Part shown: in pieces, positions 3,715 to 60,980 of the stretch | Numbering within the stretch: position 1 is the stretch's first letter | Layout of the letters: every line of letters begins with the position of its first letter | DNA from: Thermoplasmata archaeon | Lineage (GTDB): Archaea > Thermoplasmatota > E2 > DHVEG-1 | Direction: 5' to 3' | DNA length: 64,000 bases | NCBI GenBank assembly: GCA_014894395.1 | Contig: JADBLO010000072.1 | Location: 130,351-194,350 of the forward strand | Program-made: the position numbers and the translations under genes | Notes under the pieces: model-generated | What the model saw: the letters and a program-made list of their open reading frames with translations, nothing else | Told to the model about the DNA's origin: nothing | Database searches by the model: none

Positions 3715-6700
3715 TGTGTAACAAGAACCTTTTCTCTCATATCAAATGTTTTTCGATCACGGAACTCCTGCTGTTTTCCTTTATTCCATTGGTTCACCGG
3801 TCGGATATATCCTACGACCCGAGAGTAGATTTCGCATTCCGTGGTTTTTTGTTCAGCATGACAGGTCGGGCAGTACTGATGTTCACCAGCGATGTACCCA
3901 TGGTCAGGGCAGACGCTAAACGTCGGTGTGATGGTATAGTACGGGAGCGCGTAGTTCTCTGCAACCTTTCGAACTAAGTTCTTGATAGCAGTCGGCGAGG
4001 GTTCTTCCTCACCAAGGAAGATATGCAGTACCGTGCCACCAGTGTATTTTGTCTGTAAGGAATCCTGCAGATCAAGGGCTTCAAAGACATCCGTTGTAAA
4101 TCCAACAGGCAGTTGCGTGGAGTTGGTGTAGTATGGTTCAACGTCCCGCCCACGGTTTTGAGTGTAGATCTCCTGGTTGTATGTTCGAATGTCAGGGTAT
4201 TGTTTCTTATCGATTCGTGCGAGTCGATAGCTCGTCCCTTCTCCCGGTGTTGCCTCCAGGTTAAAGATGTTTTCGGTTTCTTCCTGGAAATCCGCGATAC
4301 GCGTGCGCATGTAATCAAGGACTTTCTCTGCGAATGCCTTACCCTCGGGATCGGCAATACTCTTATTCATGAAGTTCAGCAGAGCATCGTTCATGCCGAT
4401 GAGACCAATGGTAGAGAAATGGTTCTTCCAGTATTCCCCAAAGGTTTTCTTCACATCGGAGAGATAGAACCGTGAGTAGGGATGCAATCCACTATCGGTG
4501 AGATTTTCGATGAGATCTCGTTTGATTTCCAAGCTTTGTTTTGCAAGCACCATAAGTGCATCCAGTCGTTCAAAGAAATCAGTGTCATCTTTTGCAAGAT
4601 ACCCTATCCGCGGCATATTGAGGGTGACGACCCCTATCGATCCGGTTTTGGGATTCGCACCAAAAAGACCGCCACCTCGTTTTCTGAGTTCACGATTATC
4701 AAGTCTCAATCGACAATTGTGTGTTAGAATACCTGTTGTACCGACAGTGAACACAGGTGTTCCATTTTTTACCTCAAAACAATATGCGGCACTGTTGGAT
4801 ATCGGTGCGATGTCCTTTATCTTTACCCAGAGTTTATTGTTCTTCTTAAACCATATATCACCATAATTTTTTCTGTTTAATTGATATATTAATACTGCGT
4901 AATTAGGTTCTTTTCCCAGTCTTCCTTCGCGTGCATCTTCATAGATACTTGTCGTGGTTCCAAGCGTTGCAGTGAGCATGTTTAACGTTTCAACCATCTG
5001 AGGTGAAGAGGTATAAATTCTATTTCTGTTTCCGCCATCGGTGTCATAATGACCAGTAAGTGCCCCTTTTCTAAACTCCTTGCTCACGGTAAAAATCCTT
5101 GCTGTATATTTTTTATCTCTTTTTATTCCCTCGACATAATCTTTACATAAACCAACTGCTGCCTTTGAATGAACCTTGACTGTTGTTAATTTTGTTTTTT
5201 TATCAGCAGTAATTGTACAATGTGCACCGAAATACTGCTCAGCAATTTTAATGAGTTTTGTGATCACCTTTTTTTTGTAGTGGTTTTCTAAAGAAAACAC
5301 CACTGATGTATCACCATCAAAGGATCCATCTCCTGCATACGCTCCAACAAAATAACCTAAGTCTTTTGTCCCTCCAGATCCCTCATATTCCTGTAAAGAG
5401 TACGGTAGATACATTCCGAGTTTGAGGTCTTGACCTTTTACAACGCTTTCTTTTTTTTCGGAAGAATCATTCATTATATAGTTTAAATGATGGGATGACA
5501 TTTTAATTTCATGACCATTTTCTAATTTGATTTTTATCATTTGTTGGTCGTTCCATTTGTTAAATTTTCCTTTGATAAATTTCCCAGCACTATAGATTTC
5601 ATATTCCCCTTGGTTACTGTTACCTTCATAGATATTTCTAATCATTGAATATTCAACGATTCTTCCTCTTGAAGATTTAATTAGAACTTTTTCATCTCCA
5701 GCTAAAGGGCACATGGATCGTGCATCATCCGGCTTCATGTCGCTGTTAATAAAATTACTGAAGTACGGGATCCCGTATTTCGCGGTCATGTCCCAGAGTG
5801 GTGTCAGTCCATCGTTGTTCCAGTTGAAATCTTTTGTGATGTTATAGGTTGGAATGGGAAATGTAAATGGCCTCCCCTTAGAATCACCGTCATGCATGTT
5901 CTCTGCGAATGCACGGTTGATCATCTCCATCTCACCGGTGTATTCACTATAATTATTGTCAGTAAGATTTCCGCCGATAATCGCTGGTTCCTCAGCAAGG
6001 TATCCAGGTATGGTTAAATCCATTGTACAGTTACTGAAAGGCGATTGGAAGCCAACACGTGTTGGTACATTCATATTGAACAAAAATTTTTGCATCTCTT
6101 GCTTTACACTATCGTACTGGAGTTGGTCTTTTGCAATGAATGGTGCTAATAAAGTATCAAAATTCGAAAGAGCCTGTGCTCCTGCGGCTTCACCCTGTAA
6201 AGTGTACAGATAGTTCACGATATGCATAAGTGCAGTGCTGAAATGTTTCGCTGGTTTGCTTTCGATTTTCCCGGAGACGCCTTTGAAACCGAGGAGTAAT
6301 AAATCTTTTAAGTCCCACCCCACGCAATATGGTCCGAGTGTCCCAAGGTCGTGCAGGTGGTAGTCTCCCTTGGTGTGCGCATCTCCTATCTCAGGCGGAT
6401 AAATCTTATTGAGCCAGTAATGAGAAATAATGCTTTCAGTGGCGTACACATTCAATCCTTGCAAAGAGTATGCCATGTTGCTATTCTCATTGACCTTCCA
6501 GTCCAACATGCTGAGGTAGTCATCAACCACATCAATGTCTTTCAGAAGTCCCCCGATTTCTCGCATGTCCTGGTGTTGTTTCCTGTAGAGGATGAATGCT
6601 TTCGCGGTTTTCGCATGACCATCCTCTATGATGACTTTTTCTACGACGTCCTGGACTTGTTCAACTGTAGGGATTTCACTGCGTTTCAACTCTTTTTCTA

Positions 6701-6848
6701 AGATGGTGATAACTTTGTCTGTCAGCTCTGCTGCTTTCTTGTAGTCTTTTCCACCGACTGCTTGTGCTGCTTTCCAGATTGCTTCTGTGATTCTTACTGG
6801 GTTGAAGTCAACAATTTTCCCGTCTCGTTTCTTAATCTTCCGTATCAT
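3711..6848 (-). CDS. nrdD: Anaerobic (class III) ribonucleoside-triphosphate reductase NrdD, with an in-frame intein
   Basis: 1045 aa. N-terminal ATP-cone (VRITEAIWKAA...). C-terminal glycyl radical motif RVVGYIRPV and a Zn-ribbon CPDHG...CPTC. Removing the 332-aa intein leaves ~713 aa, typical for NrdD. Confidence 0.85.
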   Translation of the reverse strand: MIRKIKKRDGKIVDFNPVRITEAIWKAAQAVGGKDYKKAAELTDKVITILEKELKRSEIPTVEQVQDVVEKVIIEDGHAKTAKAFILYRKQHQDMREIGGLLKDIDVVDDYLSMLDWKVNENSNMAYSLQGLNVYATESIISHYWLNKIYPPEIGDAHTKGDYHLHDLGTLGPYCVGWDLKDLLLLGFKGVSGKIESKPAKHFSTALMHIVNYLYTLQGEAAGAQALSNFDTLLAPFIAKDQLQYDSVKQEMQKFLFNMNVPTRVGFQSPFSNCTMDLTIPGYLAEEPAIIGGNLTDNNYSEYTGEMEMINRAFAENMHDGDSKGRPFTFPIPTYNITKDFNWNNDGLTPLWDMTAKYGIPYFSNFINSDMKPDDARSMCPLAGDEKVLIKSSRGRIVEYSMIRNIYEGNSNQGEYEIYSAGKFIKGKFNKWNDQQMIKIKLENGHEIKMSSHHLNYIMNDSSEKKESVVKGQDLKLGMYLPYSLQEYEGSGGTKDLGYFVGAYAGDGSFDGDTSVVFSLENHYKKKVITKLIKIAEQYFGAHCTITADKKTKLTTVKVHSKAAVGLCKDYVEGIKRDKKYTARIFTVSKEFRKGALTGHYDTDGGNRNRIYTSSPQMVETLNMLTATLGTTTSIYEDAREGRLGKEPNYAVLIYQLNRKNYGDIWFKKNNKLWVKIKDIAPISNSAAYCFEVKNGTPVFTVGTTGILTHNCRLRLDNRELRKRGGGLFGANPKTGSIGVVTLNMPRIGYLAKDDTDFFERLDALMVLAKQSLEIKRDLIENLTDSGLHPYSRFYLSDVKKTFGEYWKNHFSTIGLIGMNDALLNFMNKSIADPEGKAFAEKVLDYMRTRIADFQEETENIFNLEATPGEGTSYRLARIDKKQYPDIRTYNQEIYTQNRGRDVEPYYTNSTQLPVGFTTDVFEALDLQDSLQTKYTGGTVLHIFLGEEEPSPTAIKNLVRKVAENYALPYYTITPTFSVCPDHGYIAGEHQYCPTCHAEQKTTECEIYSRVVGYIRPVNQWNKGKQQEFRDRKTFDMREKVLVTQ
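4716..5711 (-). mobile_element. Intein (332 aa) with LAGLIDADG homing-endonuclease domain inside NrdD
   Basis: Starts with Cys (SM|CPLAGDEKV...) and ends ...GILTHN followed by the extein Cys (CRLRL). LAGLIDADG-like blocks LGYFVGAYAGDGSF and LTGHYDTDGG. Boundaries were counted codon by codon. Confidence 0.75.
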
Positions 6849-8581: not shown

Positions 8582-10444
8582 TTGAATCGGAAAGGGTTGG
8601 CTGTTGGATTAATTCTTCTCTTCATTGTTTCGATAGTTGCTCCAATGGGAATTGGAAATAAAACAAATTCAACAAAGAATTATGAAAAGTACAATCTTAA
8701 TAGTTATCATATTTCTGAAGTATACAACAACGAAAAACAAATTCGTAGGAATCTTGTTCCTGATACTGTTATTTCTGATGTTTCAGTCTCTTATAAGGGA
8801 ACAGCATCTCCATCTAACGTTTTAGGTCCAATGAATTCCTCGTGGCCGATGTACTGCCATGATACGCACCATACTGGAAGAAGTCCTTATAGCACTGCTG
8901 ATAATCCACCAGGACACATGAAATGGCGCTTTGAAAATGATAAGATTGGCTGTCTTTATGGATCATCGGCTATTGATTCCAATGGAATCATTTATTTTGG
9001 AGGTGTAGACTTTTTTGCACTCTATCCCAATGGAACATTGAAATGGCAATATCCGATTGAAGGGTGGAGCGAGTCCTGCCCAGCAATTGACGATAACGGA
9101 ACAATTTATGTCGCCACAGCATATGGAGATCCAAATTATATTTACGCAATATATCCAAATGGCACCCTAAAATGGAGATATTGGATAGGGGGAGCAACAA
9201 ACATATTATCTTCGCCGGTAATAGGACTAGATGGGACAATTTTCTTTGGTTGCGGACAGTCCATAGTTGCACTCTATTCGAACGGAACACTTCGCTGGCA
9301 ACATTCGACAAATCACCTTGTCTATTCATCTCCAGCCATCGGAGATGATGGGACTGTCTATTGCGGCTGTCATGACACTTATTTATACGCTCTTTATCCG
9401 AACAATGGGACCGTAAAATGGATGTTTAAAACAGGGGATTGGATTCGGGTCAGCCCCTGCATCGCTGATGACAGCACCATTTATTGCGTTTCACTTGATT
9501 CTTATCTGTATGCCATAAATCCAAATGGAACGATGAACTGGAAAACAAACGTTGGCGCTGGAACATCACCAACCATAGGACAAGATGGAACCATTTATGC
9601 AGGGTGGAGTAATCTTTACGCAGTTAACCCAGATGGCTCGGTGAAATGGATTTATAGTTCCGCTGGAGGAATCGAAGGTGGTACGCCGTGTACATCTCGG
9701 GAGGGAATTATCTATTTTGGGACATACAATGGTTATCTCATTGCAGTAAATCCAAATGGTACTGAAGCATGGAAAGCACCTATTGGTCAATGCCAGTCAG
9801 CTCCAGCAATAGATGAGGAGGGAAACCTCTACATTGGTGGAATGGATGGCAATTTGGTTGGTTACCTTTATGCCTTTGGCCCAGGAGGAGTATTAAAAGT
9901 AGAAGCAAACGGCCCCTACAATGCAATGTATAATCAATCCGTTCAATTCGCAGGTACTATCTATGGTGGTATACCACCATATAACTGTCACTGGGACTTT
10001 GGAGATGGAAATACCTCAGAAGAACAAAACCCCAAGCATACCTATTGTCAGATTGGATCTTTTAATGCCACATTCAACGTGACCGATTCGGAAGGCAACT
10101 ACAGTTCTGATACAGCAAAAGTTACCATTATTGCTAGATGGCCTTTGGTCACTATTACAAAACCAGTGAATGGCATCTATCTTATGGATAAGAGAATCCT
10201 ACCTTTCTCCAAACCTGTCATCATCGGTAAAATCACAATCCAAGTAGAAGCGACACAGGAACCATTTGGCATTGAACGTGTTGAATTTTATATTGATGAC
10301 ACACTGAAGGCAACCGATACCGAAACTCCCTATCAATGGACATGGAGCACACCAGCCTTCTTCAAACACACCATCACCGCAGTTGCATACGATACCTCTG
10401 GGAAAAGCACGGGAAAATCTATCGAGGTGTCGAAGTTTTTCTAA
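8582..10444 (+). CDS. Secreted PQQ-like beta-propeller repeat protein with PKD-like domain and C-terminal Ig-like domain
   Basis: 620 aa. TTG start with a GAGGA RBS. N-terminal signal/anchor. Repeated ~40-aa units (NGTLKWQY / DGTIYFG / LYALYPNGT) typical of PQQ/WD-like propellers. PKD-like segment WDFGDGNTSEEQNPKHTY. C-terminal Ig-like domain shared with 26420..28303. Confidence 0.6.
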   Translation: MNRKGLAVGLILLFIVSIVAPMGIGNKTNSTKNYEKYNLNSYHISEVYNNEKQIRRNLVPDTVISDVSVSYKGTASPSNVLGPMNSSWPMYCHDTHHTGRSPYSTADNPPGHMKWRFENDKIGCLYGSSAIDSNGIIYFGGVDFFALYPNGTLKWQYPIEGWSESCPAIDDNGTIYVATAYGDPNYIYAIYPNGTLKWRYWIGGATNILSSPVIGLDGTIFFGCGQSIVALYSNGTLRWQHSTNHLVYSSPAIGDDGTVYCGCHDTYLYALYPNNGTVKWMFKTGDWIRVSPCIADDSTIYCVSLDSYLYAINPNGTMNWKTNVGAGTSPTIGQDGTIYAGWSNLYAVNPDGSVKWIYSSAGGIEGGTPCTSREGIIYFGTYNGYLIAVNPNGTEAWKAPIGQCQSAPAIDEEGNLYIGGMDGNLVGYLYAFGPGGVLKVEANGPYNAMYNQSVQFAGTIYGGIPPYNCHWDFGDGNTSEEQNPKHTYCQIGSFNATFNVTDSEGNYSSDTAKVTIIARWPLVTITKPVNGIYLMDKRILPFSKPVIIGKITIQVEATQEPFGIERVEFYIDDTLKATDTETPYQWTWSTPAFFKHTITAVAYDTSGKSTGKSIEVSKFF

Positions 10445-16062: not shown

Positions 16063-19029
16063 TTATTGCCCTTCGTTGCACGGTTCGTATGTGTTTAACG
16101 CCGGATCACCAAAGAGTATGTATTCCTGGAAGCTCACGTATTTTGATTCCATCATTGGACTAAGGCCCTTAGATGCTGTGCTCTTGTATAAATCAGCATA
16201 GTTGTTATTTGCCAATTCAATGTCTAACATTGCGTTTCCAGTGTAAATATTGAGTGGTGGCGACCACCAGAGCTGCCAGGGTGCATCTGCGGGTAAATAG
16301 TTGTTTTTTGCGTTTCTAAGCGCTAATCCTACACTGGTGTTGTATTGTTTCATATCGGCACACACATCTTCATATATCTTCTCCCCAAAGTGTGCATCTG
16401 GGAAGATTCCTTTATTCCATTGACCCTTTGCTCTTATGTATTTTAGATATGTTTGGATTGGTAAATCGTATTTTGTTTTCTTTGGTTCAAGATAACCGCC
16501 ACCAATATTTGACCCAGTAGGTGATGCAATAAGAGAAGCTACTCCTGCATGTAATAACGATTGACCAATATTCGCCCGTCCATACATTCCATCGATTTTT
16601 CCACATATACAGCTTTCCAACCACATAAACGATGGCCCAAGATTCATGTTTGATACTGTTCTTGTATCATAGTCACCTACGGCACTTAAGTCTCCTCCGG
16701 GGCCCATGAAACCACCGCCTATCGGTATAATAGTTTGAATAAGCAATGCTTTCATTAATGGGCCACCAAGTCCTGATGCCACGATATCATTTCCGCCCAC
16801 ACCAAATAGCTGTTGATTACCATGACCGTTTACAAACAAAAAGTTGCTTGACTCAAATATATCTCCGCCTATAACACTACCTTCCCCGACTAGTTTTCTT
16901 ACCTGCCATTTTTCAAAGAAGAGTCTGTTTAAGAGGGTACTCTTTTTAATTTTGTATAGAGTTTCTTCGCTAAGTCCCTTTGCCATACCCTCTTCATATA
17001 AAGCCCCTTGCAAGTTGAATCCTAATGGTTCCACAACCTCAGATGCGGCTCGTTTATATGTCATTTCAGCGTAACCCGTGAAGGCTTTCATAGGTTCTCC
17101 ACGTTTAACTTTTTTAAGTATGTCACCAAAGATTATGTATCTGACTAATGGTTTTTGGAAATCCTGCCCTCCACCAACTAAAAGACCAAAGTTATCCTTC
17201 CATGTCTCCAAGGTGCTCGTAAGTTCATTATAGAACACACTTTTAAGTATCAATGCATCTGCATCCTGAGCATCCCAACCGGTTATACGACCTACAATGT
17301 TTTCTATGAAGGGGTATTTCTCCTCAGTGTCACTGTATACATCATTTGCTAAATTAGACCAGTCATAACGTATTGGGTCAATATTACCGTAGAGAACATC
17401 ACTTGGGGTTCCACCACCGCTATAGTAGGGTGTATCATCAACACCATCTCCATCAAGGTCCCCAATAGGTTCAACATGATTTTGATAGTAGTAATTCGGA
17501 AGAACGGTCCCATCACCAACTAAAGCAATATACACAGGACTTTTTTTATAATGGTCTCTTAAACCTTTGATATCTCGATCATCATTCATTGGAAGACCCG
17601 CAAGTTTTGCAAGTAAGGTATTCAAAGGATCATGTATTTCATCAAAAAAATGTTTATTTGATATAGGTACCAGTTTCGGATTTTTCCCGCCCACGTATAT
17701 ACCAGGGCAGGTTTCTCCGCTATCAGTAATTATATTATCATCAGCTGTAAACGCAAACTCAGGTTTACCAAAAATAATCCCTCCATGGTATGCAGTCAAA
17801 TAAGGTGCAACAGATGAAAGACATTTCATCATTGGATACACTGGATTTTCGAGTTTCTCAACGACAACTCGAGCTGATACTTCACCTTCTTTTTTAACTA
17901 ACCAGCTACCGGAAGCACCAATAGTATACTCAACCCCACCTCGGCCATAAACTACAGTTTCAGAATATATAACATCTTTGGTTATTTTACCACTTGCATC
18001 TCTTTCGGCGATACCACCGGCAGCTGTATCACCTGGATGAGCTTCATAGTTTTGTAAACCGAAGGGCAATTCTTTTAAATTAGGACCCATTGTAAACGAT
18101 GCCGAATCTCCCATATCATCAGAATTTTCAGCATCATGGTTAATACCCTCAAATTTAATCAATGCATACTTGTAATCCGAAGGTATTGTGTAACTCCATG
18201 TGACCGAGCCTTTACCTGTTGCCATACCAAGAAGAGCTCCTACAAGCTGGCTCATAGAGCTTGTTTTTATTTTTTCAGGTCCAAAGTTAAACTCTACACT
18301 ACCTAACACCTCAGGTGGCCAAGCATCTACTGGATTTGTAAGAGTAATATAGTCGACTTTCTGGTTAAGTTTATTTTCAACAATTTCAATAGATGCATTC
18401 ACAATCTCATCAACAGAATCAAATTTTAAAACATCACCGTAACCCTCGATATTTTCACCACAGACAAGGGTTTTTTTCACACCAAGATCGCTAAGAACGC
18501 TGGTCACATCAGAATCCATTTCTTGAGTTACAATGACTGGTATTCTAAGATAAGAAGCTATAGGTGTCGCCACTACACCTAAATTATATCCAGGTTCATC
18601 GTATTCAATAATTAAAGCCGCTTCACTGCTATCCCAGTAGTCTTTAGCAATCCTTAAAGAGGCGTTTTTGGCAGATTCATCATCTTCAATTATTTCACCT
18701 TGTTTACTGCCATCTAATTGAGCTTTCAGTCTTGTAATTGCTGTTGAGGGGGTTGTAAAATTCATTACGTAAAGTGGTATCACTGTTCGTTCACCATTTT
18801 CATCATAATTCACTGCCAACGGTGTCGCTATAAGTGGATAAAATGGACAGCTATCAGAAACAGTAATAGAACCGGGCATATCTTTCAAGTCACCAGTAAC
18901 ACCAATAAATTCGTTTGCTTTCACCGACTCCATTTCTGTTTTTTCTGGAACCCAATAATATATACCAATTGAAGCAAAAATAAGTATAGCTACTCCAAAT
19001 ACTACAATTATTTTATCATTTTTCATCAT
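16063..19029 (-). CDS. Large (988 aa) membrane-anchored surface protein with putative clan CD cysteine peptidase (gingipain/C25-like) domain
   Basis: N-terminal signal anchor. Candidate catalytic dyad in the order VNGHGNQQ ... WLESCICGK, the His-Gly then Cys arrangement of clan CD enzymes. Confidence 0.5.
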   Translation of the reverse strand: MMKNDKIIVVFGVAILIFASIGIYYWVPEKTEMESVKANEFIGVTGDLKDMPGSITVSDSCPFYPLIATPLAVNYDENGERTVIPLYVMNFTTPSTAITRLKAQLDGSKQGEIIEDDESAKNASLRIAKDYWDSSEAALIIEYDEPGYNLGVVATPIASYLRIPVIVTQEMDSDVTSVLSDLGVKKTLVCGENIEGYGDVLKFDSVDEIVNASIEIVENKLNQKVDYITLTNPVDAWPPEVLGSVEFNFGPEKIKTSSMSQLVGALLGMATGKGSVTWSYTIPSDYKYALIKFEGINHDAENSDDMGDSASFTMGPNLKELPFGLQNYEAHPGDTAAGGIAERDASGKITKDVIYSETVVYGRGGVEYTIGASGSWLVKKEGEVSARVVVEKLENPVYPMMKCLSSVAPYLTAYHGGIIFGKPEFAFTADDNIITDSGETCPGIYVGGKNPKLVPISNKHFFDEIHDPLNTLLAKLAGLPMNDDRDIKGLRDHYKKSPVYIALVGDGTVLPNYYYQNHVEPIGDLDGDGVDDTPYYSGGGTPSDVLYGNIDPIRYDWSNLANDVYSDTEEKYPFIENIVGRITGWDAQDADALILKSVFYNELTSTLETWKDNFGLLVGGGQDFQKPLVRYIIFGDILKKVKRGEPMKAFTGYAEMTYKRAASEVVEPLGFNLQGALYEEGMAKGLSEETLYKIKKSTLLNRLFFEKWQVRKLVGEGSVIGGDIFESSNFLFVNGHGNQQLFGVGGNDIVASGLGGPLMKALLIQTIIPIGGGFMGPGGDLSAVGDYDTRTVSNMNLGPSFMWLESCICGKIDGMYGRANIGQSLLHAGVASLIASPTGSNIGGGYLEPKKTKYDLPIQTYLKYIRAKGQWNKGIFPDAHFGEKIYEDVCADMKQYNTSVGLALRNAKNNYLPADAPWQLWWSPPLNIYTGNAMLDIELANNNYADLYKSTASKGLSPMMESKYVSFQEYILFGDPALNTYEPCNEGQ

Positions 19030-28314: not shown

Positions 28315-28389
28315 CGGACGTGGCGGGATTCGAACCCGCGGTTACCGACTTAGAAGGCCGGTGCCTTATCCAGGCTAGGCCACACGCCC
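28315..28389 (-). tRNA. tRNA-Arg (anticodon TCT)
   Basis: Folded by hand. 7-bp acceptor stem with one G-U pair. Anticodon stem CCGGC/GTCGG, loop CTTCTAA. TPsiC GGTTCGAATCC. Confidence 0.8.
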
Positions 28390-28400
28390 AAATAGAGTAG

Positions 28401-28488
28401 CGCTGAGGGGGAGATTCGAACTCCCGCTCCCCTTGCGGAGAACCGGCTCTCAAGGCCGGCGCGGTAAACCGAGCTTTGCTACCTCAGC
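28401..28488 (-). tRNA. tRNA-Ser (anticodon TGA)
   Basis: 88 nt. Acceptor GCTGAGG/CCTCAGC. Anticodon loop CTTGAGA. Long variable arm typical of tRNA-Ser. TPsiC GGTTCGAATCC-like. Confidence 0.8.
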
Positions 28489-35359: not shown

Positions 35360-35433
35360 GGGCTCGTGGTCTAGTTGGTTATGACGTTTCCCTGACACGG
35401 AGAAGGTCTTGAGTTCGAATCTCAACGAGCCCA
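35360..35433 (+). tRNA. tRNA-Val (anticodon GAC)
   Basis: Acceptor GGGCTCG/CGAGCCC. Anticodon stem TTTCC/GGAGA (one G-U), loop CTGACAC. TPsiC GGTTCGAATCC-like GAGTTCGAATCTC. Confidence 0.8.
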
Positions 35434-43260: not shown

Positions 43261-46200
43261 ATGGCTGAGATTAACAAGAAAAACGATCAACCACGTGATA
43301 TTAACGAGGAAATGAAACGTGCTTTTATTGATTATTCCATGAGTGTGATTATGAGCAGGGCCCTCCCGGACATTCGTGATGGGTTAAAACCGGTTCATCG
43401 AAGAATTTTACATGCAATGAATGAAATGGGAATGGGGTATGAGAAATCGTATAAGAAATCTGCTCGAGTGGTCGGAGAGTGCTTTGTTAAAGATACATTG
43501 GTTCTTACAGAACAAGGACTCATACCGATACAAGATGTAAAAAAGGGAGATGCAGTCTATACTCAAGATGGCTTAGAGAATGTCAAAGAGCTATACATAA
43601 TGCCCAAGCGAGATCTTGTTAAAATTATCTTAGAAAATGGACTAGATGCTATTGTTACAAAATCACAAAAATTTAAGGTACTTACACCAGATTGGAAATT
43701 TATCTGGAAAGAAGTTAGGGAGCTTACCGAAAATGATTACATTGTTATAAAATCCGATTATCCTGACATTAAAAATCAGGTAAGAATTGGAGAAAAATTA
43801 TTAAATAAAAATATCGCGTATCTCCTTGGTCAATTAATTTCCGATGGATGGGTTGAAAAAAGCCAGAGACTCGGCTTTTATTCGAATAGTTTATCTATAA
43901 TAAAAAGAATTGAAGGAATTTTACAAGAAGAATTTGAATATTTTCCTACTGTTGAACAAATAGAATACGAATATGAAACTTCTAATGGGTTAGTTTTGCT
44001 CAATAAGGGTTTCCAAATACGTATCAATAGTAAAACAATAAATCAATATTTAATCCAAGAGTATCATCTCTTGGGTATTAAAGCTGAAAATAAAAAAATA
44101 CCTCAACAAATTTTCCAAAGTCCTAAGGATGTCATTTTTTCATTTATCAGCGGTTTGATTGATGGCGATGGTAGCATTCATAAAGAAAGGAATGTCATTC
44201 ATTATGGTACTGTTTCAAAAGAACTGGCAAATCAACTGATAATACTCCTGCATCATTTCGATATCCATGGAGTTAAATATCTTGAAAAAACTAAAACAGG
44301 TGGTATTGTCTGTGGGAGAAATATTGCACGTACACTTCCATTTTTTTCTTTAGAGTTTAGAGGTGAATGTGCACAAAAATTAGGGATCGAGTTGAATCTC
44401 GCTGAAGAAGAAAAATTACAAAAATTAAAAGAATTATTAAGCTATAAAGTAGGAAAATCAAATTTCGAAATTTTACCATATGGCAGTAAAAAAATCTTTA
44501 GCGAATTAAGCGATTGCCATTTAGGTGGTGGATGGTATCAAGATATAGAGGGAAAAAAAATTAGATCGGGAATAAAATATCCCTCGGGGACAAAGATACG
44601 ATACTCTAAAGAATTGCATGATAAACCCTTACGAATTTCTCAAATAATCGAATGGGGGATACAAAACAAAATAAAAAAAATCGGTTCTGATTTATATGAA
44701 TTTATCGAGAGAATTATCACTGAAAAAATATACTTTTTAAAAGTGAGTGGTATTGAGGAAGGCGGAAGAGAAGAAACTTATGATCTTCAGGTCGAAAACA
44801 AACACGAATTTATTGCCAATGGCATGCTTGCACATAATTGTCTTGGTAAGTATCATCCTCATGGAGATCAAGCTGTATATGATTCATTGGTACGAATGGC
44901 TCAGGATTTCTCGTTGCGTTATCCGTTAATCGCTGGTCAAGGTAATTTTGGTTCTGTCGATGGGGATTCCCAGGCTGCGATGCGATACACAGAAGTAAAA
45001 ATGGCCAAGATCACAAAGCTTATGCTGCAGGATATCGAGAAAGAAACAGTTGAATGGCGTGACAATTTTGATGGCACCTTAAAAGAACCTGAGGTTCTTC
45101 CAGCGATTTTACCGAATCTTCTGGTGAACGGATCGTCTGGTATCGCGGTTGGTATGGCCACGAACATGGCGCCTCATAACATCTGTGAGGTGATCGATGG
45201 TACTATCCGGATGATTGACGCTCCTGAGACATCGACTGCGGAGTTAATGGAGATTATTAAAGGACCTGATTTTCCGACAGGCGGTATTATCTTTGGTCGT
45301 GGTGGTATCCTTTCTGCGTATTCCACGGGACGCGGTTCACTTGTTGTCCGTGCGAAAACCTCCATTGAAGAAGGTGAACAAAAAAATAAAATCATTGTTC
45401 ATGAGCTGCCGTACCAGGTGAATAAATCTGTTCTTCTGCAAACAATCGCTGAGCTTGTCAAAGAGAAGAAAATTGAGGGCATCTCTGATCTTCGCGATGA
45501 AAGTGATCGAAAAGGCATGCGCATTGTCATTGAGTTGAAACGTGACGCTATCGATGATGTTGTATTGAATCAATTGTTTGAACATACTGAGTTACAATCT
45601 TCATTTGGTGTGCTGAATCTTGCGATTGTCAAAGGCGAGCCAAAGGTTCTGATGCTGAAAGAAATTCTTCAGCATTACATTGAATATAGAATAGAAATTA
45701 TTACGCGACGTACCACCTATGATCTGAAGAAAGCGAAAGAAAAAATACACATCCTTGAAGGCCTCATGATTGCGCTGCGGAACATCGATGAAGTCATTAA
45801 GATCATCCGACAGAGCAAAGAAGTTGAGGAAGCCAAAAATCGACTGATAACGCGCTTTAAACTTTCTGAGATTCAAGCAAAAGCCATCCTTGACATGAGG
45901 CTGCAGAAACTCACTGGTATGGAAATCGAGGCTGTTGAAAAAGACTACAAAGAAACCAAACAACTGATTGAACAACTCGAAGCCATCCTTGCAGACAAGC
46001 AAAAGATCCTTGCTGAAATCAAACGAGAGTTGCTCGAGATTAAAGAAAAATTTGGGGACGCGCGACGCACCCAGATCGTGGAAGGAGACGCAGGCATCGA
46101 TATAGAAGACCTCATACCTGTCCAGGAAGTCGTTGTAACCATTACAAAAGACGGTTATATTAAACGTATTCCGACGGAAACCTATCATACACAACATCGT

Positions 46201-47487
46201 GGCGGGAAAGGACTTATTGGTGTACGGCCAAAACAAGAAGATTTCGTAGTTGATTCGTTTATCACCAGCACCCATGATTATCTGATGTTTTTCACGAATC
46301 ACGGGCGGGTTTACTGGATGAAAGGCTATAAGATCCCTGAAGGAGACCGCCATGCAAAAGGAAAAGCCATCATCAACTTACTCCCACGACTTGAAGAAGG
46401 AGAAAAAATTGAAACCGCGGTTCCTATCCATGAGTTTGATGATAAACATTTCTTGATTTTTGCAACAAAACAAGGCACGATTAAAAAGACGGTGTTGTCT
46501 GCGTATGGTAATATCCGGGTGAATGGGATCATTGCCATAAAACTTGAGGAAGGCGATGAGCTCATGGGCGTGGAACTCTCCGATGGAACCAAGACCGTGA
46601 TGATCGCAACCGCTGGTGGTCAGGCCTGCAGGTTTAATGAAAAGGAACTCAGGCCGATGGGACGGGCAACCAGGGGCGTGATTGGTATCCGGCTTAAGAA
46701 CAAGAATGATGCGGTGGTCGCTTTGACCGTGGTGGATATCACAGGTTCGTTGTTTACGATTACAGAAAACGGTTTTGGGAAACGATCCCCGATTGATGAA
46801 TACCGGATGACTCATCGGGGAAGCAAAGGAGTACGAACAATTGTTACCAATGAGCGAAACGGAAACGTGGTGTTCGTTAGTCAGGTCACTGATGAAAACG
46901 AGCTGATTATTACAACTGAGCATGGAATGACCGTACGAATACCGGTACGGGACATCAGGGAACAAGGTCGGAACACGATGGGTGTGCGAATCATGCGTTT
47001 GAACGAGGGCGACAAGGTTGTTTCTGTCACTATTACAAAAATGTTGTCCGAAAACGGAGTGAAATGCGAGGTTGCATCAGCAGAACAGATGCCAATCGGT
47101 ATGATTGCTGAACAGCCCCAGAAAGAAGAACCAGCAGCACCAGTTGAAGAGGCTGAGGAATTACCAAAAGAAGTCAAAGAATCCTTTCCGGTTGTTAAAC
47201 CAGCGGAACCCGAAAAAACAGTAACGAAGCCTGAGGAATCAAGAAAAATCGAGAAGCAAAAGAAAGAAAAAGTAAAGATAGTACCGCTAATAAAAGGCAA
47301 AGGAAAACCACTGAAAATAAAAAAAGCAGCTCCAGCGAAAAAGAAACCAGTTCAAAAGAAGAAGGAAAAACCAGTGAAAAAACTAAAAGCAGTAAAACCA
47401 AAGAAGGTTAAAACAAAACCGGTGAAAAAACTAAAGAAACCTCAGAAGAAAAAAATCTCTGAAAAGAAAAAACCAAAGCGAAAATGA
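43261..47487 (+). CDS. gyrA: DNA gyrase subunit A, containing an intein and a C-terminal K/P-rich tail
   Basis: 1408 aa. GKYHPHGD, AAMRYTE (active-site Tyr). C-terminal beta-pinwheel repeats. 453-aa in-frame insertion. Last ~125 aa are Lys/Pro/Ala-rich. Confidence 0.9.
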   Translation: MAEINKKNDQPRDINEEMKRAFIDYSMSVIMSRALPDIRDGLKPVHRRILHAMNEMGMGYEKSYKKSARVVGECFVKDTLVLTEQGLIPIQDVKKGDAVYTQDGLENVKELYIMPKRDLVKIILENGLDAIVTKSQKFKVLTPDWKFIWKEVRELTENDYIVIKSDYPDIKNQVRIGEKLLNKNIAYLLGQLISDGWVEKSQRLGFYSNSLSIIKRIEGILQEEFEYFPTVEQIEYEYETSNGLVLLNKGFQIRINSKTINQYLIQEYHLLGIKAENKKIPQQIFQSPKDVIFSFISGLIDGDGSIHKERNVIHYGTVSKELANQLIILLHHFDIHGVKYLEKTKTGGIVCGRNIARTLPFFSLEFRGECAQKLGIELNLAEEEKLQKLKELLSYKVGKSNFEILPYGSKKIFSELSDCHLGGGWYQDIEGKKIRSGIKYPSGTKIRYSKELHDKPLRISQIIEWGIQNKIKKIGSDLYEFIERIITEKIYFLKVSGIEEGGREETYDLQVENKHEFIANGMLAHNCLGKYHPHGDQAVYDSLVRMAQDFSLRYPLIAGQGNFGSVDGDSQAAMRYTEVKMAKITKLMLQDIEKETVEWRDNFDGTLKEPEVLPAILPNLLVNGSSGIAVGMATNMAPHNICEVIDGTIRMIDAPETSTAELMEIIKGPDFPTGGIIFGRGGILSAYSTGRGSLVVRAKTSIEEGEQKNKIIVHELPYQVNKSVLLQTIAELVKEKKIEGISDLRDESDRKGMRIVIELKRDAIDDVVLNQLFEHTELQSSFGVLNLAIVKGEPKVLMLKEILQHYIEYRIEIITRRTTYDLKKAKEKIHILEGLMIALRNIDEVIKIIRQSKEVEEAKNRLITRFKLSEIQAKAILDMRLQKLTGMEIEAVEKDYKETKQLIEQLEAILADKQKILAEIKRELLEIKEKFGDARRTQIVEGDAGIDIEDLIPVQEVVVTITKDGYIKRIPTETYHTQHRGGKGLIGVRPKQEDFVVDSFITSTHDYLMFFTNHGRVYWMKGYKIPEGDRHAKGKAIINLLPRLEEGEKIETAVPIHEFDDKHFLIFATKQGTIKKTVLSAYGNIRVNGIIAIKLEEGDELMGVELSDGTKTVMIATAGGQACRFNEKELRPMGRATRGVIGIRLKNKNDAVVALTVVDITGSLFTITENGFGKRSPIDEYRMTHRGSKGVRTIVTNERNGNVVFVSQVTDENELIITTEHGMTVRIPVRDIREQGRNTMGVRIMRLNEGDKVVSVTITKMLSENGVKCEVASAEQMPIGMIAEQPQKEEPAAPVEEAEELPKEVKESFPVVKPAEPEKTVTKPEESRKIEKQKKEKVKIVPLIKGKGKPLKIKKAAPAKKKPVQKKKEKPVKKLKAVKPKKVKTKPVKKLKKPQKKKISEKKKPKRK
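43480..44838 (+). mobile_element. Intein (453 aa) with LAGLIDADG homing endonuclease inside GyrA
   Basis: ARVVGE|CFVKDTLVL ... FIANGMLAHN|CLGKYHPHGD. Starts with Cys, ends His-Asn, +1 Cys. LAGLIDADG blocks YLLGQLISDGW and FISGLIDGDGS. Extein junction aligns with E. coli ARVVGDVIGKYHPHGD. Confidence 0.8.
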
Positions 47488-56810: not shown

Positions 56811-59800
56811 TTATGGTGACTGTTCTCGTGTCAGGAGAATATTCAGGTCTTTTGGTGTATCACCAATAGTGAGTGTGATTTGTCCGGTGCCGGTATATGT
56901 TATATTTTGACCGCTTTCATTGACAAGTTCTTCAACACTTGCGTTATATGAGCCTGGCGCCAGTTCGGTGGTGTAATTTCCATTGCTGTCGGTTATCACG
57001 CTTTTTGCTACTGCAGTATTTTCCGCAATTCGTAAATCCTCTGAGAAGAGAATGGTCATGTTTGCTTTCCCTACACCATTGTATTTTGTAGTTCCGCTGA
57101 CAGTAACAGATACTTTGGTAGCGGCGATGTTGTAAGATGCAGTTCCTTCTCCGACGGAAACAGTTAGTTTGTCTGTAAAGGTGTATACCGTGGTTGCTGC
57201 CTCTGTTTTTTTGACGGTAACATTGTATGTTCCTGGTGTGAGTTTAGCTACGTAGAGTCCCTGAGCATCAGATGTCGCAGAAATTTGTTTTGTTGCGGTG
57301 TTGTTTTGTATTGATTTGTCAGGGGCGAATGTAACTGGGATGCTGCCAAGATTGACTGTAGCATAAGTTGTATATCCGCTGACAATGACTGGAGCATAGG
57401 TAAGGGAGATGTTAACCCAGGATGTTTTGTTTGCGGTAAGGGTAACTGTTTGTTCGGTGACGTAGTCAAGGTTTCCTGTGCTGGTATTTTGTTTTGTCGC
57501 ATTCAAGGTGTATACTCCCGGAATTAATGAGGGAAAAGAATAGGTTCCTGCGGTACCTGTAGTTATAGTGGTGACTGATTTTTGGGTGTCATCGAGTTTG
57601 GTGTAGGTGAGTTGAATTTGCACGTCGCTTGCTTCCTCACCAGTAGTGTATTTCTTATCAACATTACTATCGGTATAGACAACTCCTTTTACTTCAGCTA
57701 ATTTTGGTTTTGAGATGTTGTACGAGTTATTGCCAGGTTCAATATTGATAGGTTCTCTGTTAAGGAGGGTGTATTCATTTTCAACTGCAGAGATATTGTA
57801 TTTACTTGGGTATAAATTACTGAAAACGTAGTGTCCTTGTAGGTCTGTTGTCACCGGTTGGACCGGCCTTCCGAAATAATAATCGTTTAATTCGATGGTA
57901 ATCCCAGATAATGGGGTATCACTGGCTTGTTCGTAGGAACCGTTGTTGTTGTTATCCTGATAGACAAAACCTTCCAGGGTTGAAAGGCTCACATTGATGT
58001 TGAAGTTACGTGAATATTTCGAACCGTTGAGACGCATGGCTTCTGCGTCCGTCACTGGAGAATATAACATATTATTGGTGTTGTTAAACGTGATTTTTTT
58101 CAGGAGCACTTCGTTGGCGTAGGTGAAAAGCAGAGTGATATTGCCACCAGGTGCAAGGAGGTTGAAACTACCGTTTGCATCAGTCGCCATGTTATCGTGT
58201 GGGAACCCGTAGTCATCAAGGATTGCGACCGTTACATAGGGAAGTGTGGTGTTGTTGCAGCTGATGGAACCGTTGAAGAACGCGCCTTCATAGTACTTCG
58301 CGATGACCACTGCGCTTCTGCCTTGCCCGTAGTAGGGGTAGGGTGAAACATAGACCGGGATGAAATGCCTCATAGCATAGCAGGGGATTTGTTGATTTGG
58401 TGTTTGATAGTATCCACTCTGATCTTGTTGCGGGGGGGTACCAATGTAGGTTCGATAGAACATGGTGTTGAAATAATCTTGTTTGTTAATGGTTGTAGTT
58501 CCTGTGACGGCGATACGGTTTCGCTGCTCCTGGAGCATATCGTTGAGTTCTTTTGCCGTCCATTGACCATCAGGGCCCTGGGATCCATCTGTATTTACCG
58601 AATAACCCGTGTATATGACCTGGATGAAATCGTCCTCGGGGTTGTGGAACTGTTTTCCTGCGGTTCGAAGCGCGGTTAAAACGTTGCTTTTATCGCCAAG
58701 GAACGCGAAGATGTTGAAAATCTGCTCGTCATATCCTTCCACCCCGTAGTACCGAATGCTGTAGCCAGTGGCTTGCTGGATATCATGGTATAACCATGTG
58801 ATTTGTTCATCGGTTAAGGTATCGTTTAAAAGTTTTTCGATATCGTGATAATAAGCGTTTTCAGGATATTGCGCTCCCACGAGCAGGGTCTTGCTCAGAT
58901 TAACGTCATATTCTGCTCCGATTGCCTTCTTCTGCGAGGGAGAAAGCGCGGGATTAAGCATCCAGGATGTAATTTTGGTTGTATTGTTATTCCCAAGATG
59001 TTTCTGAAGTGCAGTAATGACTGAATCAGAGAAGGCTATGTCGTCGTTATCTTTTCGATTCCCTTCTAATAATCGGACAATCCAGACTGCGATCCCTTGT
59101 TTTTCACTTTTTGCGGTATGGAAATTAGCTGCAGGTGAAATTCCGTCTTGGAAGTTATCAGCGACGGTCGGATGCGCTCCAACCGCAACTTCGTAGAACC
59201 CGTAGTCCCACCAGGAGATAAAACCAGGTCGTTTTGATGGATCCGCGATGTTTGTGTCTTGTTTGTTTAGCCAAGCATAGGCGGCGACCCAGTATTGCTC
59301 CTTGTAAGAGCTAGAGCCGAACGCAGAGGAATGATTTTCTCCGAAGAAATCATATTTCAAATTACTCGTACCGTTTTTTGATGCAGCCGATGGTACCGCC
59401 GCATCGAGTGCGAGGTACCCATTAGGGATGAGAATAAGGAGAGCGACAAAGAGAACCCCGAAAACGTGGTAGATTCTCACGCCTTTTCGTATGCCTCGGA
59501 TACCACCGCCTGCGTTCCTTATGTTTCGTGCCATTTGTTTGTAGTCGATCTTACTAATCAAAAACCAAATAATCCATCCCGCAAGGAGGGCGATGAGGGG
59601 TACCATGTCGTTAAGGAAACGACCAGCGGTTGATGTCAGCCAGATGTTGATGACGAATAATGAAAGGATGAAGAGGTAGTCACGTCGTCCTTTCTGTTTC
59701 ACATATTGGTAGATAAGAAACGCAAAGCCAGCCCAGGCAAGCCAGTACAATACAGGGCCGTACGACATCACGGTTCTGCTCATATTATATGTTCCTGCCT

Positions 59801-60980
59801 CTGCGATCGTAAGGGATACCTTTGACCCATAAATCCCAGCACCATAGATGAGTTCTGCGATTTTCCCTAACGGCGAGAATATTGTCAATGTTTTAGGATA
59901 TGCATAGACGACGTAGAGAAATGCTGTTACGGCTCCTGCAATAACACCAATCAATGGGAGTGAAACGACCCAGGGGATTTTCTTCCGTTTGAAAAGAATA
60001 CAGAGGCCACCGAAGATTAAAACCCCTATTGCTAGATAGAAAGGAAGGTTTAAGATGACACCTCGTGCGGCGGTGACCGGCCATGAAACAAGAACTCCAG
60101 TGAATAATGCAAGGAAGATGTTGATAACAAATCGTTCTTCGAGCTTATTCATGAAAATATCTATTAAAAGTTGTACAACTGCATAAACGGTGATAATTGT
60201 GTAGAGGTATTGTGCTTCTACCCAAACCATAGAAAGAGCTGCAAGCGGGATTCCTGCGAGGAGCGCGTAGAGAATTGAGCGTTTCATATCTTTTTCCTTG
60301 ATGCTTTTAATTAAAAAGAGGAAGGTGAGGAAATATAAGAGCAGGTTGAACGAGTCGTGGTCAAACAGACCATATGCGGAACCATGTCCTGAGCTAATAT
60401 GAATAGGTATGATCGCGATGAGGAGCGCGGCGACGAGCCCGGCTTTCTTCCCGAATAATATTTTCCCGATGAAGTACACGGGGAAGACGAGCAAAGCACC
60501 AAATAACGCAGGGATAAACTCCATTGCGTACCCGATTGCATCTGCTTCACTCATAAAAGGGACAAGGAGTTTACTGAAACCGATCGCAGACATGACGAGC
60601 AACGGAGCACGACCTCCTGATTTCCCAAATGGATAGGCGAGCAGGGGATCGTTGGAAGAGAAAAAGGGAAAACGCCCGGTCTGTACTGTATTATCAACAA
60701 GCCGCATGTTATAGTACGGGTCAGGACCAGATAAATAGAACGTATCGGTCATGGTTGTTCCTGATGGGTTCATATTCACGTTTGATACGATGTTGAAATA
60801 GGAGTTCATGAATAAAACTAAGAAGAAAATTGCTATCAATGATACTCCAATCCACCAGTTTTTCTTGAATCGAAATCGCTTTCGTTCCGGGGCGTTTGCT
60901 ACGCCTACGGGTTGTGGAGTTGGAGCTGTTACTGATTGCGTTGGCGTTTTAAATTGTGCTCGTTTCCGCATACGTTTCAC
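56811..60980 (-). CDS. aglB: Oligosaccharyltransferase AglB (STT3 family) with ~500-aa C-terminal extension of four beta-sandwich (CarboxypepD_reg/Cna-B-like) domains
   Basis: 1389 aa. 13-TM N-terminal domain with GPDPYY acidic loop. Hallmark WWDYGFY motif. C-terminus has four repeats of ...TD..G.Y.F..L.PG.Y.V... Confidence 0.85.
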   Translation of the reverse strand: MKRMRKRAQFKTPTQSVTAPTPQPVGVANAPERKRFRFKKNWWIGVSLIAIFFLVLFMNSYFNIVSNVNMNPSGTTMTDTFYLSGPDPYYNMRLVDNTVQTGRFPFFSSNDPLLAYPFGKSGGRAPLLVMSAIGFSKLLVPFMSEADAIGYAMEFIPALFGALLVFPVYFIGKILFGKKAGLVAALLIAIIPIHISSGHGSAYGLFDHDSFNLLLYFLTFLFLIKSIKEKDMKRSILYALLAGIPLAALSMVWVEAQYLYTIITVYAVVQLLIDIFMNKLEERFVINIFLALFTGVLVSWPVTAARGVILNLPFYLAIGVLIFGGLCILFKRKKIPWVVSLPLIGVIAGAVTAFLYVVYAYPKTLTIFSPLGKIAELIYGAGIYGSKVSLTIAEAGTYNMSRTVMSYGPVLYWLAWAGFAFLIYQYVKQKGRRDYLFILSLFVINIWLTSTAGRFLNDMVPLIALLAGWIIWFLISKIDYKQMARNIRNAGGGIRGIRKGVRIYHVFGVLFVALLILIPNGYLALDAAVPSAASKNGTSNLKYDFFGENHSSAFGSSSYKEQYWVAAYAWLNKQDTNIADPSKRPGFISWWDYGFYEVAVGAHPTVADNFQDGISPAANFHTAKSEKQGIAVWIVRLLEGNRKDNDDIAFSDSVITALQKHLGNNNTTKITSWMLNPALSPSQKKAIGAEYDVNLSKTLLVGAQYPENAYYHDIEKLLNDTLTDEQITWLYHDIQQATGYSIRYYGVEGYDEQIFNIFAFLGDKSNVLTALRTAGKQFHNPEDDFIQVIYTGYSVNTDGSQGPDGQWTAKELNDMLQEQRNRIAVTGTTTINKQDYFNTMFYRTYIGTPPQQDQSGYYQTPNQQIPCYAMRHFIPVYVSPYPYYGQGRSAVVIAKYYEGAFFNGSISCNNTTLPYVTVAILDDYGFPHDNMATDANGSFNLLAPGGNITLLFTYANEVLLKKITFNNTNNMLYSPVTDAEAMRLNGSKYSRNFNINVSLSTLEGFVYQDNNNNGSYEQASDTPLSGITIELNDYYFGRPVQPVTTDLQGHYVFSNLYPSKYNISAVENEYTLLNREPINIEPGNNSYNISKPKLAEVKGVVYTDSNVDKKYTTGEEASDVQIQLTYTKLDDTQKSVTTITTGTAGTYSFPSLIPGVYTLNATKQNTSTGNLDYVTEQTVTLTANKTSWVNISLTYAPVIVSGYTTYATVNLGSIPVTFAPDKSIQNNTATKQISATSDAQGLYVAKLTPGTYNVTVKKTEAATTVYTFTDKLTVSVGEGTASYNIAATKVSVTVSGTTKYNGVGKANMTILFSEDLRIAENTAVAKSVITDSNGNYTTELAPGSYNASVEELVNESGQNITYTGTGQITLTIGDTPKDLNILLTREQSP

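Follow-up and report, generated by a model that had tools for sequence, protein, structure and literature searches.

A single gene encodes AglB and its tail

The DNA analysed here, called the window below, is a stretch of 64,000 nucleotides from a Thermoplasmata archaeon (contig JADBLO010000072.1 of assembly GCA_014894395.1, positions 130,351 to 194,350). Positions 56811..60980 of its minus strand hold a single unbroken open reading frame (ORF) of 1389 codons, which encodes an oligosaccharyltransferase of the AglB/STT3 family that continues into a tail of five modules. The frame starts with GTG at 60980 and closes with the stop codon TAA at 56811-56813. Homologues are annotated from Met4 (ATG at 60971), three codons downstream of the GTG, and are 1386 aa long. 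All parts of the gene described below lie on the same minus strand.

The protein opens with a basic segment (residues 1-39, 60864..60980) that is probably cytoplasmic, given its sequence, the positive-inside rule and the known topology of AglB. It is followed by a multi-spanning STT3 membrane domain of about 13 helices (residues 40-528, 59397..60863), delimited by Pfam, by alignment with a solved structure, by the helices of an AlphaFold2 (AF2) model and by fold matches. The Pfam family STT3 (PF02516) matches residues 81-489 with 81.7 bits, against a cut-off of 24.5, and an AglB_core-like family gives a weak match at residues 579-628. The best solved relative is AglB-L of Archaeoglobus fulgidus (AfAglB-L, 3waj), aligned over residues 39-618 at an E value of 3.5e-19.

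This alignment places D87, D207-H-D209, T391-I-A-E394 and WWDYG opposite the catalytic motifs of AfAglB-L, and all four are invariant among 41 homologues. The first acidic motif, GPDPYY in external loop 1 (residues 85-90, 60711..60728), corresponds to GNDPWY of AfAglB-L and contains D87. DHD (residues 207-209, 60354..60362) is the second acidic, metal-binding motif. TIAE (residues 391-394, 59799..59810), the TIXE motif of external loop 5, is aligned to the identical TIAE of AfAglB-L. WWDYG (residues 590-594, 59199..59213) is the signature of the sequon-binding site.

Confidence is low for the membrane part in the AF2 model that covers residues 1-897 (predicted local distance difference test, pLDDT, 62.6), and the model served for coarse fold matching only. 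Its best 11 Foldseek matches are all catalytic subunits of oligosaccharyltransferases, among them AfAglB-L, human STT3A and yeast Stt3 (7e9s at E 1.7e-12; template-modelling scores 0.47-0.55); the next match falls to E 0.35. The protein is not a member of the archaeosortase-associated type, since it reaches 199.3 bits with the NCBIfam model TIGR04154 (archaeo_STT3, archaeosortase A system-associated oligosaccharyltransferase), far under the cut-off of 450.

Because of the Pfam score, the alignment of the catalytic motifs with 3waj and the fact that the top fold matches are oligosaccharyltransferases only, we assign the window protein to the STT3/AglB family, with the one reservation of a non-canonical Ser/Thr-pocket motif. 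Its predicted activity is the transfer of a lipid-linked glycan to the asparagine of N-X-S/T. An earlier note, made from the letters of the window, had already named an AglB/STT3 oligosaccharyltransferase with the motifs GPDPYY and WWDYGFY; both are present (the latter at residues 590-596), and the Pfam match, the AfAglB-L alignment and the core fold matches bear the identification out.

The region between WWDYG and the tail

No Pfam family matches residues 620-897. The AF2 secondary structure shows an alpha-helical insertion of about 120 aa (residues 620-740, 58761..59123), whose four long helices in the model lie between WWDYG and the putative Ser/Thr-pocket helix. The AglB_core-like match ends at residue 628, and the same profile position cuts the match short in the giant relatives described below.

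At the position expected for the DK or MI motif stands EGYDEQIFNIF (residues 748-758, 58707..58739), a strand followed by a helix in the AF2 model, invariant in the 41 homologues. It reads D-x-x-I-x-x-x-F, neither the canonical DK nor the canonical MI motif as these are defined (PMC3703281, PMC5131992). Placed by position, not by superposition, it is a candidate non-canonical Ser/Thr-pocket motif, Ile-type in look. Taken by itself, D-x-x-I-x-x-x-F is a hybrid of the two consensus motifs, of which we found no description. The rest of the AglB globular domain (residues 759-897, 58290..58706) is mixed alpha/beta; the membrane-proximal stretch of the model has the AfAglB-L structures 7e9s, 3wai and 5gmy as matches.

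The tail is built of five beta-sandwiches

The 492 residues beyond the usual globular domain of AglB (898-1389) agree with the ~500 extra residues of the earlier note. They form five tandem transthyretin-like beta-sandwiches, D1 to D5, to all of which the motif T-D-x-x-G-x-Y...L-x-P-G-x-Y is common. A repeat hidden Markov model (HMM), self-built and iterated over relatives, delimits units at 899-977, 1009-1097, 1108-1200, 1202-1294 and 1296-1388. Each of the five segments, scanned singly, matches CarboxypepD_reg with E values from 9e-4 to 1.2e-7. The AF2 model of residues 560-1389 has a mean pLDDT of 85.9, which rises above 90 along the tail, and a predicted template-modelling score of 0.66. 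It shows beta structure only from about residue 891 onwards and continues from the globular domain into D1 and on through five sandwiches.

D1 (residues 898-998, 57987..58289) is a divergent CarboxypepD_reg-like sandwich (CarbopepD_reg_2 at E 2.8e-4, CarboxypepD_reg at E 9e-4). D2 (999-1097, 57690..57986) is SdrD_B-like, with 45.2 bits against a cut-off of 29.7, and D3 (1098-1200, 57381..57689) is CarboxypepD_reg/SdrD_B-like, passing the CarboxypepD_reg cut-off narrowly (32.4 bits against 32.3). D4 (1201-1295, 57096..57380) is of the distal repeat type, which different lineages have in different numbers. D5 (1296-1389, 56814..57095), the terminal module of this distal type, is delimited like D4 by the repeat HMM, the model, Pfam and module typing. 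It ends in a conserved beta-strand, NIxLTRE; the tail has no hydrophobic C-terminal segment and no membrane anchor.

Over the whole protein, CarboxypepD_reg (PF13620) scores 87.3 bits against its cut-off of 32.3, in five stretches; SdrD_B (PF17210) scores 69.5 bits, and the fold-level relative SpaA/prealbumin-like (PF17802) 34.2 bits. SdrD_B and SpaA match D2 and D3; of these matches only that of SdrD_B on D2 clears its cut-off in single-module scans, D3 alone staying just under it at 28.8 bits. NOMO_5th scores 29.1 bits against a cut-off of 27 with the whole protein only, and is not reached by single modules; the matches of NOMO1-like_9th and NOMO_3rd lie under their cut-offs. Pfam Cna_B has no match at E<=1, either in the whole protein or in single modules, and the module alignment contains no recurring Lys-Asn/Asp-Glu isopeptide triad.

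The earlier note had described four C-terminal repeats of the CarboxypepD_reg/Cna-B type. The CarboxypepD_reg-like sandwiches are real, and the peptide that it quoted (VYTDSNVDKKYTTGEEA...TAGTYSFPSLIPGVYTLNA) is module D3, but their number is five by the shared motif, the repeat HMM, the AF2 model and single-module Pfam scans. D1 is probably the module that was overlooked, since it is the most divergent. The Cna_B label is not supported, as both the Pfam match and the triad are absent; the families are CarboxypepD_reg, SdrD_B and SpaA, with NOMO domains scoring lower. The repeat pattern is not due to chance: the motif occurs in five of five modules, and the architecture is kept down to about 40% identity.

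D2 carries the loop DNNNNGSYE, and D3 has DSNVDKKYTTGEE at the equivalent place. Both only resemble Ca2+-binding loops; that of D2 is a putative one. The tail is acidic (53 kDa, isoelectric point 4.66). It should lie outside the cell, as the globular domain of AglB is extracytoplasmic and nothing separates the tail from it.

The fusion is conserved across Thermoplasmatota

A search of 5.8 billion proteins found 579 homologues, and the same architecture occurs in more than 100 clusters at 90% identity, drawn from NCBI, JGI, ENA and Logan assemblies. The best 120 of the 579, which come from independent contigs, are nearly all 1376-1407 aa long, down to 53% identity. With one genome taken per GTDB species, we recovered 80 species-level loci, all in metagenome-assembled genomes (MAGs) of Thermoplasmatota. 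The ORF could be extracted in 79 of them; it reaches a stop codon in 71 and leaves the contig end in 8.

The surroundings are conserved as well. A gene for phosphoribosyl pyrophosphate (PRPP) synthetase lies upstream, and genes for AMMECR1, an amidohydrolase, a small export protein and an inositol monophosphatase lie downstream, each in 43-66 of the 80 loci; about 58-66 loci preserve the order PRPP synthetase, AglB, AMMECR1, amidohydrolase. The AglB gene is surrounded by housekeeping genes; we found no glycosylation gene cluster around it, and no second STT3 gene within the window. In pairwise comparisons with six relatives, the ratio of non-synonymous to synonymous substitution rates (dN/dS) is 0.07-0.25 for the tail and 0.04-0.16 for the core. 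The tail is thus under purifying selection.

These data bear directly on the danger that the earlier note itself had raised, that of a mis-joined gene. A lost stop codon might have joined AglB to the gene of a downstream surface protein, yet the same continuous ORF is found in more than 100 clusters from four sources and in 80 GTDB species loci, its flanking genes are conserved, dN/dS stays under 0.25 across the junction region and the tail, and a confident AF2 model runs unbroken from the globular domain into D1. Nothing was found in favour of the mis-join; we therefore reject it and regard an artefact as virtually out of the question.

Two of the loci, SM1-50 and M11B2D (71-72% identical), come from MAGs that are listed as Thermoprofundales (MBG-D) (PMC6461988). 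Since both carry the tailed AglB, the window falls in or near Thermoprofundales/MBG-D. Database labels of the homologues are generic: 'glycosyltransferase family 39 protein', 'STT3 domain-containing' or 'SdrD B-like domain-containing'. One full-length homologue of 1376 aa (P0090, 58% identical) is labelled 'Candidatus Asgardarchaeum californiense' in NCBI, while all other named matches are Thermoplasmatota; mis-binning or lateral transfer are possible explanations. The MAG LacPavin_0920_SED3_MAG_41_62 has two contigs with the AglB gene, L001 and L014 (88% and 86% identity to the query). L014 has the same upstream PRPP synthetase gene, and L001 starts at the AglB gene, so that its upstream side is outside the contig. 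We consider them more likely to be strain variants of one locus, binned together, than a pair of paralogues.

Module number and conservation change along the tail

Conservation drops outwards. Identity to the query is 0.81 in the WWDYG region, 0.69 in the mid region, 0.59 in D1, 0.56 in D2, 0.59 in D3, 0.53 in D4 and 0.49 in D5. The invariant positions of the tail, in 41 sequences, are mostly glycine, proline, tyrosine and the asparagine or threonine of sequons.

The length that follows WWDYG varies among the 80 loci in steps of about 100 aa (~600, 700, 800-850, 945 and 1040-1050 aa). With modules typed against D1-D5 of the query, the proximal series D1-D2-D3 is fixed in most members, D3 being absent from the shortest tails, and one to four distal modules of D4/D5 type follow, for a total of three to seven modules per protein. 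A variable distal count together with an outward drop in conservation is the pattern of a stalk adjusted in length, not that of a binding head.

The tail is rich in glycosylation sequons

The tail contains 23 N-X-S/T sequons in its 492 residues, against 10.5 +/- 2.7 expected from composition-preserving shuffles (z 4.6); the membrane domain has three and the mid region four. Across the family, tails carry 12-35 sequons each, and the median density per 100 aa is 4.2 for tails, 1.0 for the mid region and 0.3 for the membrane domain. Thirteen sequon columns of the tail recur in 70% or more of 41 sequences, and N1184 and N1253 in every one of them. For comparison, sequon density over the window's remaining 42 ORFs has a median of 0.44 per 100 aa and reaches a maximum of 2.42.

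Since this sequon-rich tail adjoins an active site that recognises exactly N-X-S/T sequons, the tail may well be self-glycosylated, either in cis or by neighbouring copies of the enzyme.

The maximum of 2.42 belongs to a protein of 620 aa with a PQQ-like beta-propeller, PKD and Big_7 domains (8582-10444, plus strand), which is probably another N-glycosylated surface protein.

Still longer tails occur in the wider clade

With the core alone (residues 1-897) as query, 1.84 billion representatives yielded 1616 homologues. The membrane domain is complete in 126 of the best 150, and nearly half of these 126 (62) are at least 2000 aa long; seven measure 1500-1999 aa, 14 measure 1200-1499 aa, 23 measure 950-1199 aa and 20 are shorter than 950 aa. 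The giants of 2000-2767 aa (among P0160-P0265; loci L081/L082, 6001-13350) are 30-37% identical in the core, and those with a named source come from Thermoplasmata archaea. They follow the plan of the window protein, STT3 and AglB core and then 1300-2000 aa of CarboxypepD_reg/SdrD_B modules, often with CARDB near the end, but their arrays are roughly three to four times longer, with up to about 20 modules.

The ends of the giants also differ from that of the window protein. In 58 of the 62, the protein finishes in a hydrophobic helix and a basic tail, which would give it a membrane anchor at either end; a PGF-CTERM-like 'PGFE' signal is seen in a few (P0195, P0179). The gene of the giant P0168 (MFA5772382.1) lies directly downstream of genes for two surface proteins, one of 8,356 aa and an Ig/PKD-like one of 1,077 aa; its neighbours differ, and it is therefore not syntenic with the AglB gene of the window.

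The tail had been called unusually long. This is right when the protein is set against characterised AglBs, which measure 754-1054 aa (PMC5131992, Table 3), but not against its own relatives, many of which reach 2000-2767 aa: at 1389 aa it is mid-sized within its clade. What is new is a genuine AglB with a modular, NOMO/SdrD-B-like stalk, one case of a phenomenon that concerns the broad clade. Our literature searches turned up no earlier account of tailed AglBs, whether from Thermoplasmata, Thermoprofundales or Poseidoniales; they covered subscription journals thinly, so that this absence is no proof.

Comparison with known proteins

Up to the end of its globular domain, the window protein resembles AfAglB-L (3waj, 5gmy, 7e9s): the STT3 domain and the D, DxD-like, TIXE and WWDYG motifs align, and an outer-face globular domain follows the last membrane helix in both. 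It differs from characterised AglBs by the five serial beta-sandwiches, by the helical insertion after WWDYG and by D-x-x-I in place of DK or MI. Characterised AglBs have at most the units CC, IS, P1 and P2; solved structures show one or two peripheral units (the beta-rich P1 and P2, suggested to aid stability), a number that the window protein exceeds (PMC3703281). A segment of AfAglB-L ('...VEVKNGTYTVVL') had led us to consider the tail as an amplified P1/P2 unit; the proposal was dropped, as no AglB chain of the PDB is matched at E<=10 by a profile made from 45 modules.

The outstanding PDB match of the module profile is human NOMO2 (9c7v_B), at E 2.6e-22 in four stretches; the full-length profile finds it too, at E 2e-17. 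B domains of UafA come next for the module profile, and then scaffoldin modules. NOMO is, by experiment, a flexible rod of 'beads on a string' about 27 nm long whose length sets the spacing between membranes in the endoplasmic reticulum (ER), and a lengthened NOMO widens the ER lumen (PMC8327139). Like the tail of AglB, it is a membrane-tethered, beads-on-a-string array of transthyretin-like domains, and the ER lumen is topologically equivalent to the exterior of an archaeal cell. However, NOMO is a eukaryotic type I protein of about 12 domains with a C-terminal anchor and no enzyme domain, part of a BOS/multipass translocon complex, whereas the AglB array is fused to an enzyme, anchored through it at the N-terminal side and free at the other end. 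A search of the window protein for an anchor of the NOMO type found no hydrophobic segment at the C terminus; the partners of NOMO in the BOS complex are eukaryotic. The similarity is one of domain superfamily, and we do not claim orthology.

The best structural matches of the tail in the PDB, by Foldseek, are TIE of Bacillus anthracis (6fwv), SdrD B1-B2 of S. aureus, the 'extending region' of a large adhesin, the pilins BcpA, SpaA and GBS52, and SlaB. BaTIE consists of four Ig domains and is 19 nm long (PMC8327139). The Gram-positive stalks (TIE, SdrD B, UafA, BcpA/SpaA) share with the tail a tandem arrangement of modules whose number varies between relatives; theirs are rigid and project a functional part away from the cell. 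These proteins are anchored by sortase, bear a ligand-binding head and often contain isopeptide bonds, none of which is seen in the AglB tail, where the 'head' end is free and the anchor is an enzyme of 13 helices. SlaB of Sulfolobus (8qox_B, fold match at E 1.7e-6) is archaeal: a membrane-anchored, N-glycosylated array of beta-sandwiches that spans the pseudo-periplasm. Unlike the tail, it includes a coiled coil, is anchored by a single segment at its C terminus and binds SlaA, a lattice protein of which no counterpart is known for the lineage of the window.

Other features of the window

Two housekeeping genes elsewhere in the window carry a LAGLIDADG homing-endonuclease intein: that of DNA gyrase subunit A (43261-47487, plus strand, 1408 aa) and that of the anaerobic ribonucleotide reductase NrdD (3711-6848, minus strand, 1045 aa). 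A protein of 988 aa (16063-19029, minus strand) has a C-terminal, gingipain-type peptidase C25 domain at residues 490-979 and an unannotated N-terminal half; such a peptidase fits the extracellular-peptidase lifestyle described for Thermoprofundales (PMC9585477). Three tRNA genes, two of them adjacent, lie at 28315-28488 (minus strand) and 35360-35433 (plus strand). Besides these tRNAs, no rRNA and no other Rfam family was found in the window.

A possible role as envelope spacer

We read the tail as a rod-like, glycosylated stalk or spacer through which the enzyme becomes part of the cell envelope and whose length is tuned by its distal modules, and we give this reading a little less than an even chance. 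The protein is the AglB of an uncultured Thermoplasmatota archaeon related to Thermoprofundales/MBG-D, and its STT3 domain and WWDYG globular domain would perform their chemistry at the outer face of the cytoplasmic membrane. From there, a free-ended, acidic tail of ~53 kDa would project as a stalk. Judged by its analogues, an array of five modules might span very roughly 12-24 nm. Heavily N-glycosylated by its own enzyme or by neighbouring copies, the tail may turn the enzyme into a membrane-anchored envelope glycoprotein at the same time, one that fills, or sets the width of, the gap from the membrane to an outer envelope layer. Gain and loss of distal modules would tune the length of the stalk between lineages. 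A spacer is favoured over a binding module by the rod-like matches, the variable distal count and the outward drop in conservation, as well as by the very high sequon density and by invariant residues that are mostly Gly, Pro and Tyr or the Asn and Thr of sequons.

Several points weigh against a spacer. The dN/dS of the tail (below 0.25) and the 49-59% identity of its modules exceed what a passive spacer needs, and specific partners are possible. Some members of the tail's fold class are carbohydrate-binding-like or regulatory modules, and 3qec, a 'putative carbohydrate binding protein', matches the module profile at E 0.004. With a second, short AglB in the genome, the tailed copy could be a specialised rather than a housekeeping enzyme. 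The spacer reading presupposes an outer envelope layer, such as a surface layer (S-layer), with a space beneath it in this uncultured host; the rigidity and length of the rod are estimated from analogues only, and the occupancy of its sequons is a prediction.

Partners of the tail are central to an alternative that we find unlikely but would still weigh seriously, in which the modules bind glycans or acceptor proteins, such as folded S-layer or surface proteins glycosylated after translocation. They would thereby raise the local substrate concentration or define the substrate range, loosely like accessory subunits of eukaryotic oligosaccharyltransferases. Purifying selection on the tail agrees with such recruitment, as does the distinct character of D1, D2 and D3, whose order is fixed and of which D1 and D3 are the best conserved modules, as expected of a defined interaction near the active site; weak profile matches to 3qec and to cellulosomal scaffoldin modules point the same way. 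Yet nearly all invariant tail positions are structural Gly, Pro or Tyr or belong to sequons, with no conserved polar patch evident, and the distal modules are the least conserved and variable in number. With 12-35 sequons per tail, glycan would cover much of the surface, and the closest matches are stalks and spacers, not lectins.

Two other readings seem to us quite improbable. The tail might be an adhesin by which cells hold on to particles (detrital protein, for instance) or to one another, AglB being a mere membrane anchor: the best structural matches are indeed adhesin stalks and pilins of Gram-positive bacteria (TIE, SdrD, UafA, BcpA, SpaA), a variable number of stalk repeats is typical of adhesins, and the published description of the lineage has it living on extracellular protein (PMC9585477), with a C25 peptidase encoded in the window. 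But a distinct ligand-binding head is missing, as the outermost module, D5, has the stalk-module fold and is the least conserved; at about 12-24 nm, the rod may be too short to clear an envelope layer; and the protein has neither a sortase or archaeosortase signal nor a conserved triad of the isopeptide type, while its gene sits among housekeeping genes in conserved synteny. Just as doubtful is the proposal that the modules are extra copies of the P1/P2 peripheral units, steadying the catalytic globular domain. Solved AglB-L structures do carry such beta-rich units, for which stability was suggested while no function is assigned (PMC3703281), and D1 follows directly on the globular domain. Against this stand the failure of the module profile to find any AglB chain in the PDB at E<=10, the fact that five serial modules cannot all pack on the core, and a module number of three to seven, up to about 20 in relatives, that is unexpected for a cap; the hosts, to judge from sample names, also come from sediments of moderate temperature.

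Extended beyond this locus, the spacer reading leads to a bolder proposal, which we consider rather unlikely as it stands: in much of Thermoplasmatota, the oligosaccharyltransferase would be a building element of the cell envelope as well as an enzyme. Its NOMO-like rod, glycosylated by the enzyme itself, would form or organise the glycocalyx or the space under the S-layer, with one to about 20 modules acting as a lineage-specific ruler. If true, N-glycosylation would be physically coupled to envelope assembly, through a rod that is free-ended here and doubly anchored in the relatives of 2000-2767 aa.

To our knowledge, AglB is the one universal enzyme of archaeal N-glycosylation, and we know of structural and biochemical work only on enzymes of 750-1050 aa, in which no function is assigned to the extra 'peripheral' units. 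If the tail is merely passive decoration, the present finding amounts to a modest note on domain architecture. A globally abundant sediment lineage and much of Thermoplasmatota carry AglBs fused to sequon-rich beta-sandwich rods, and these suggest a second, architectural role for the enzyme at the cell surface. The natural series of three, four, five, six and seven modules, together with the doubly anchored giants, is well suited to tests of a ruler model, and in the AglB tail prokaryotes may have their counterpart to NOMO, the spacer of the eukaryotic ER.

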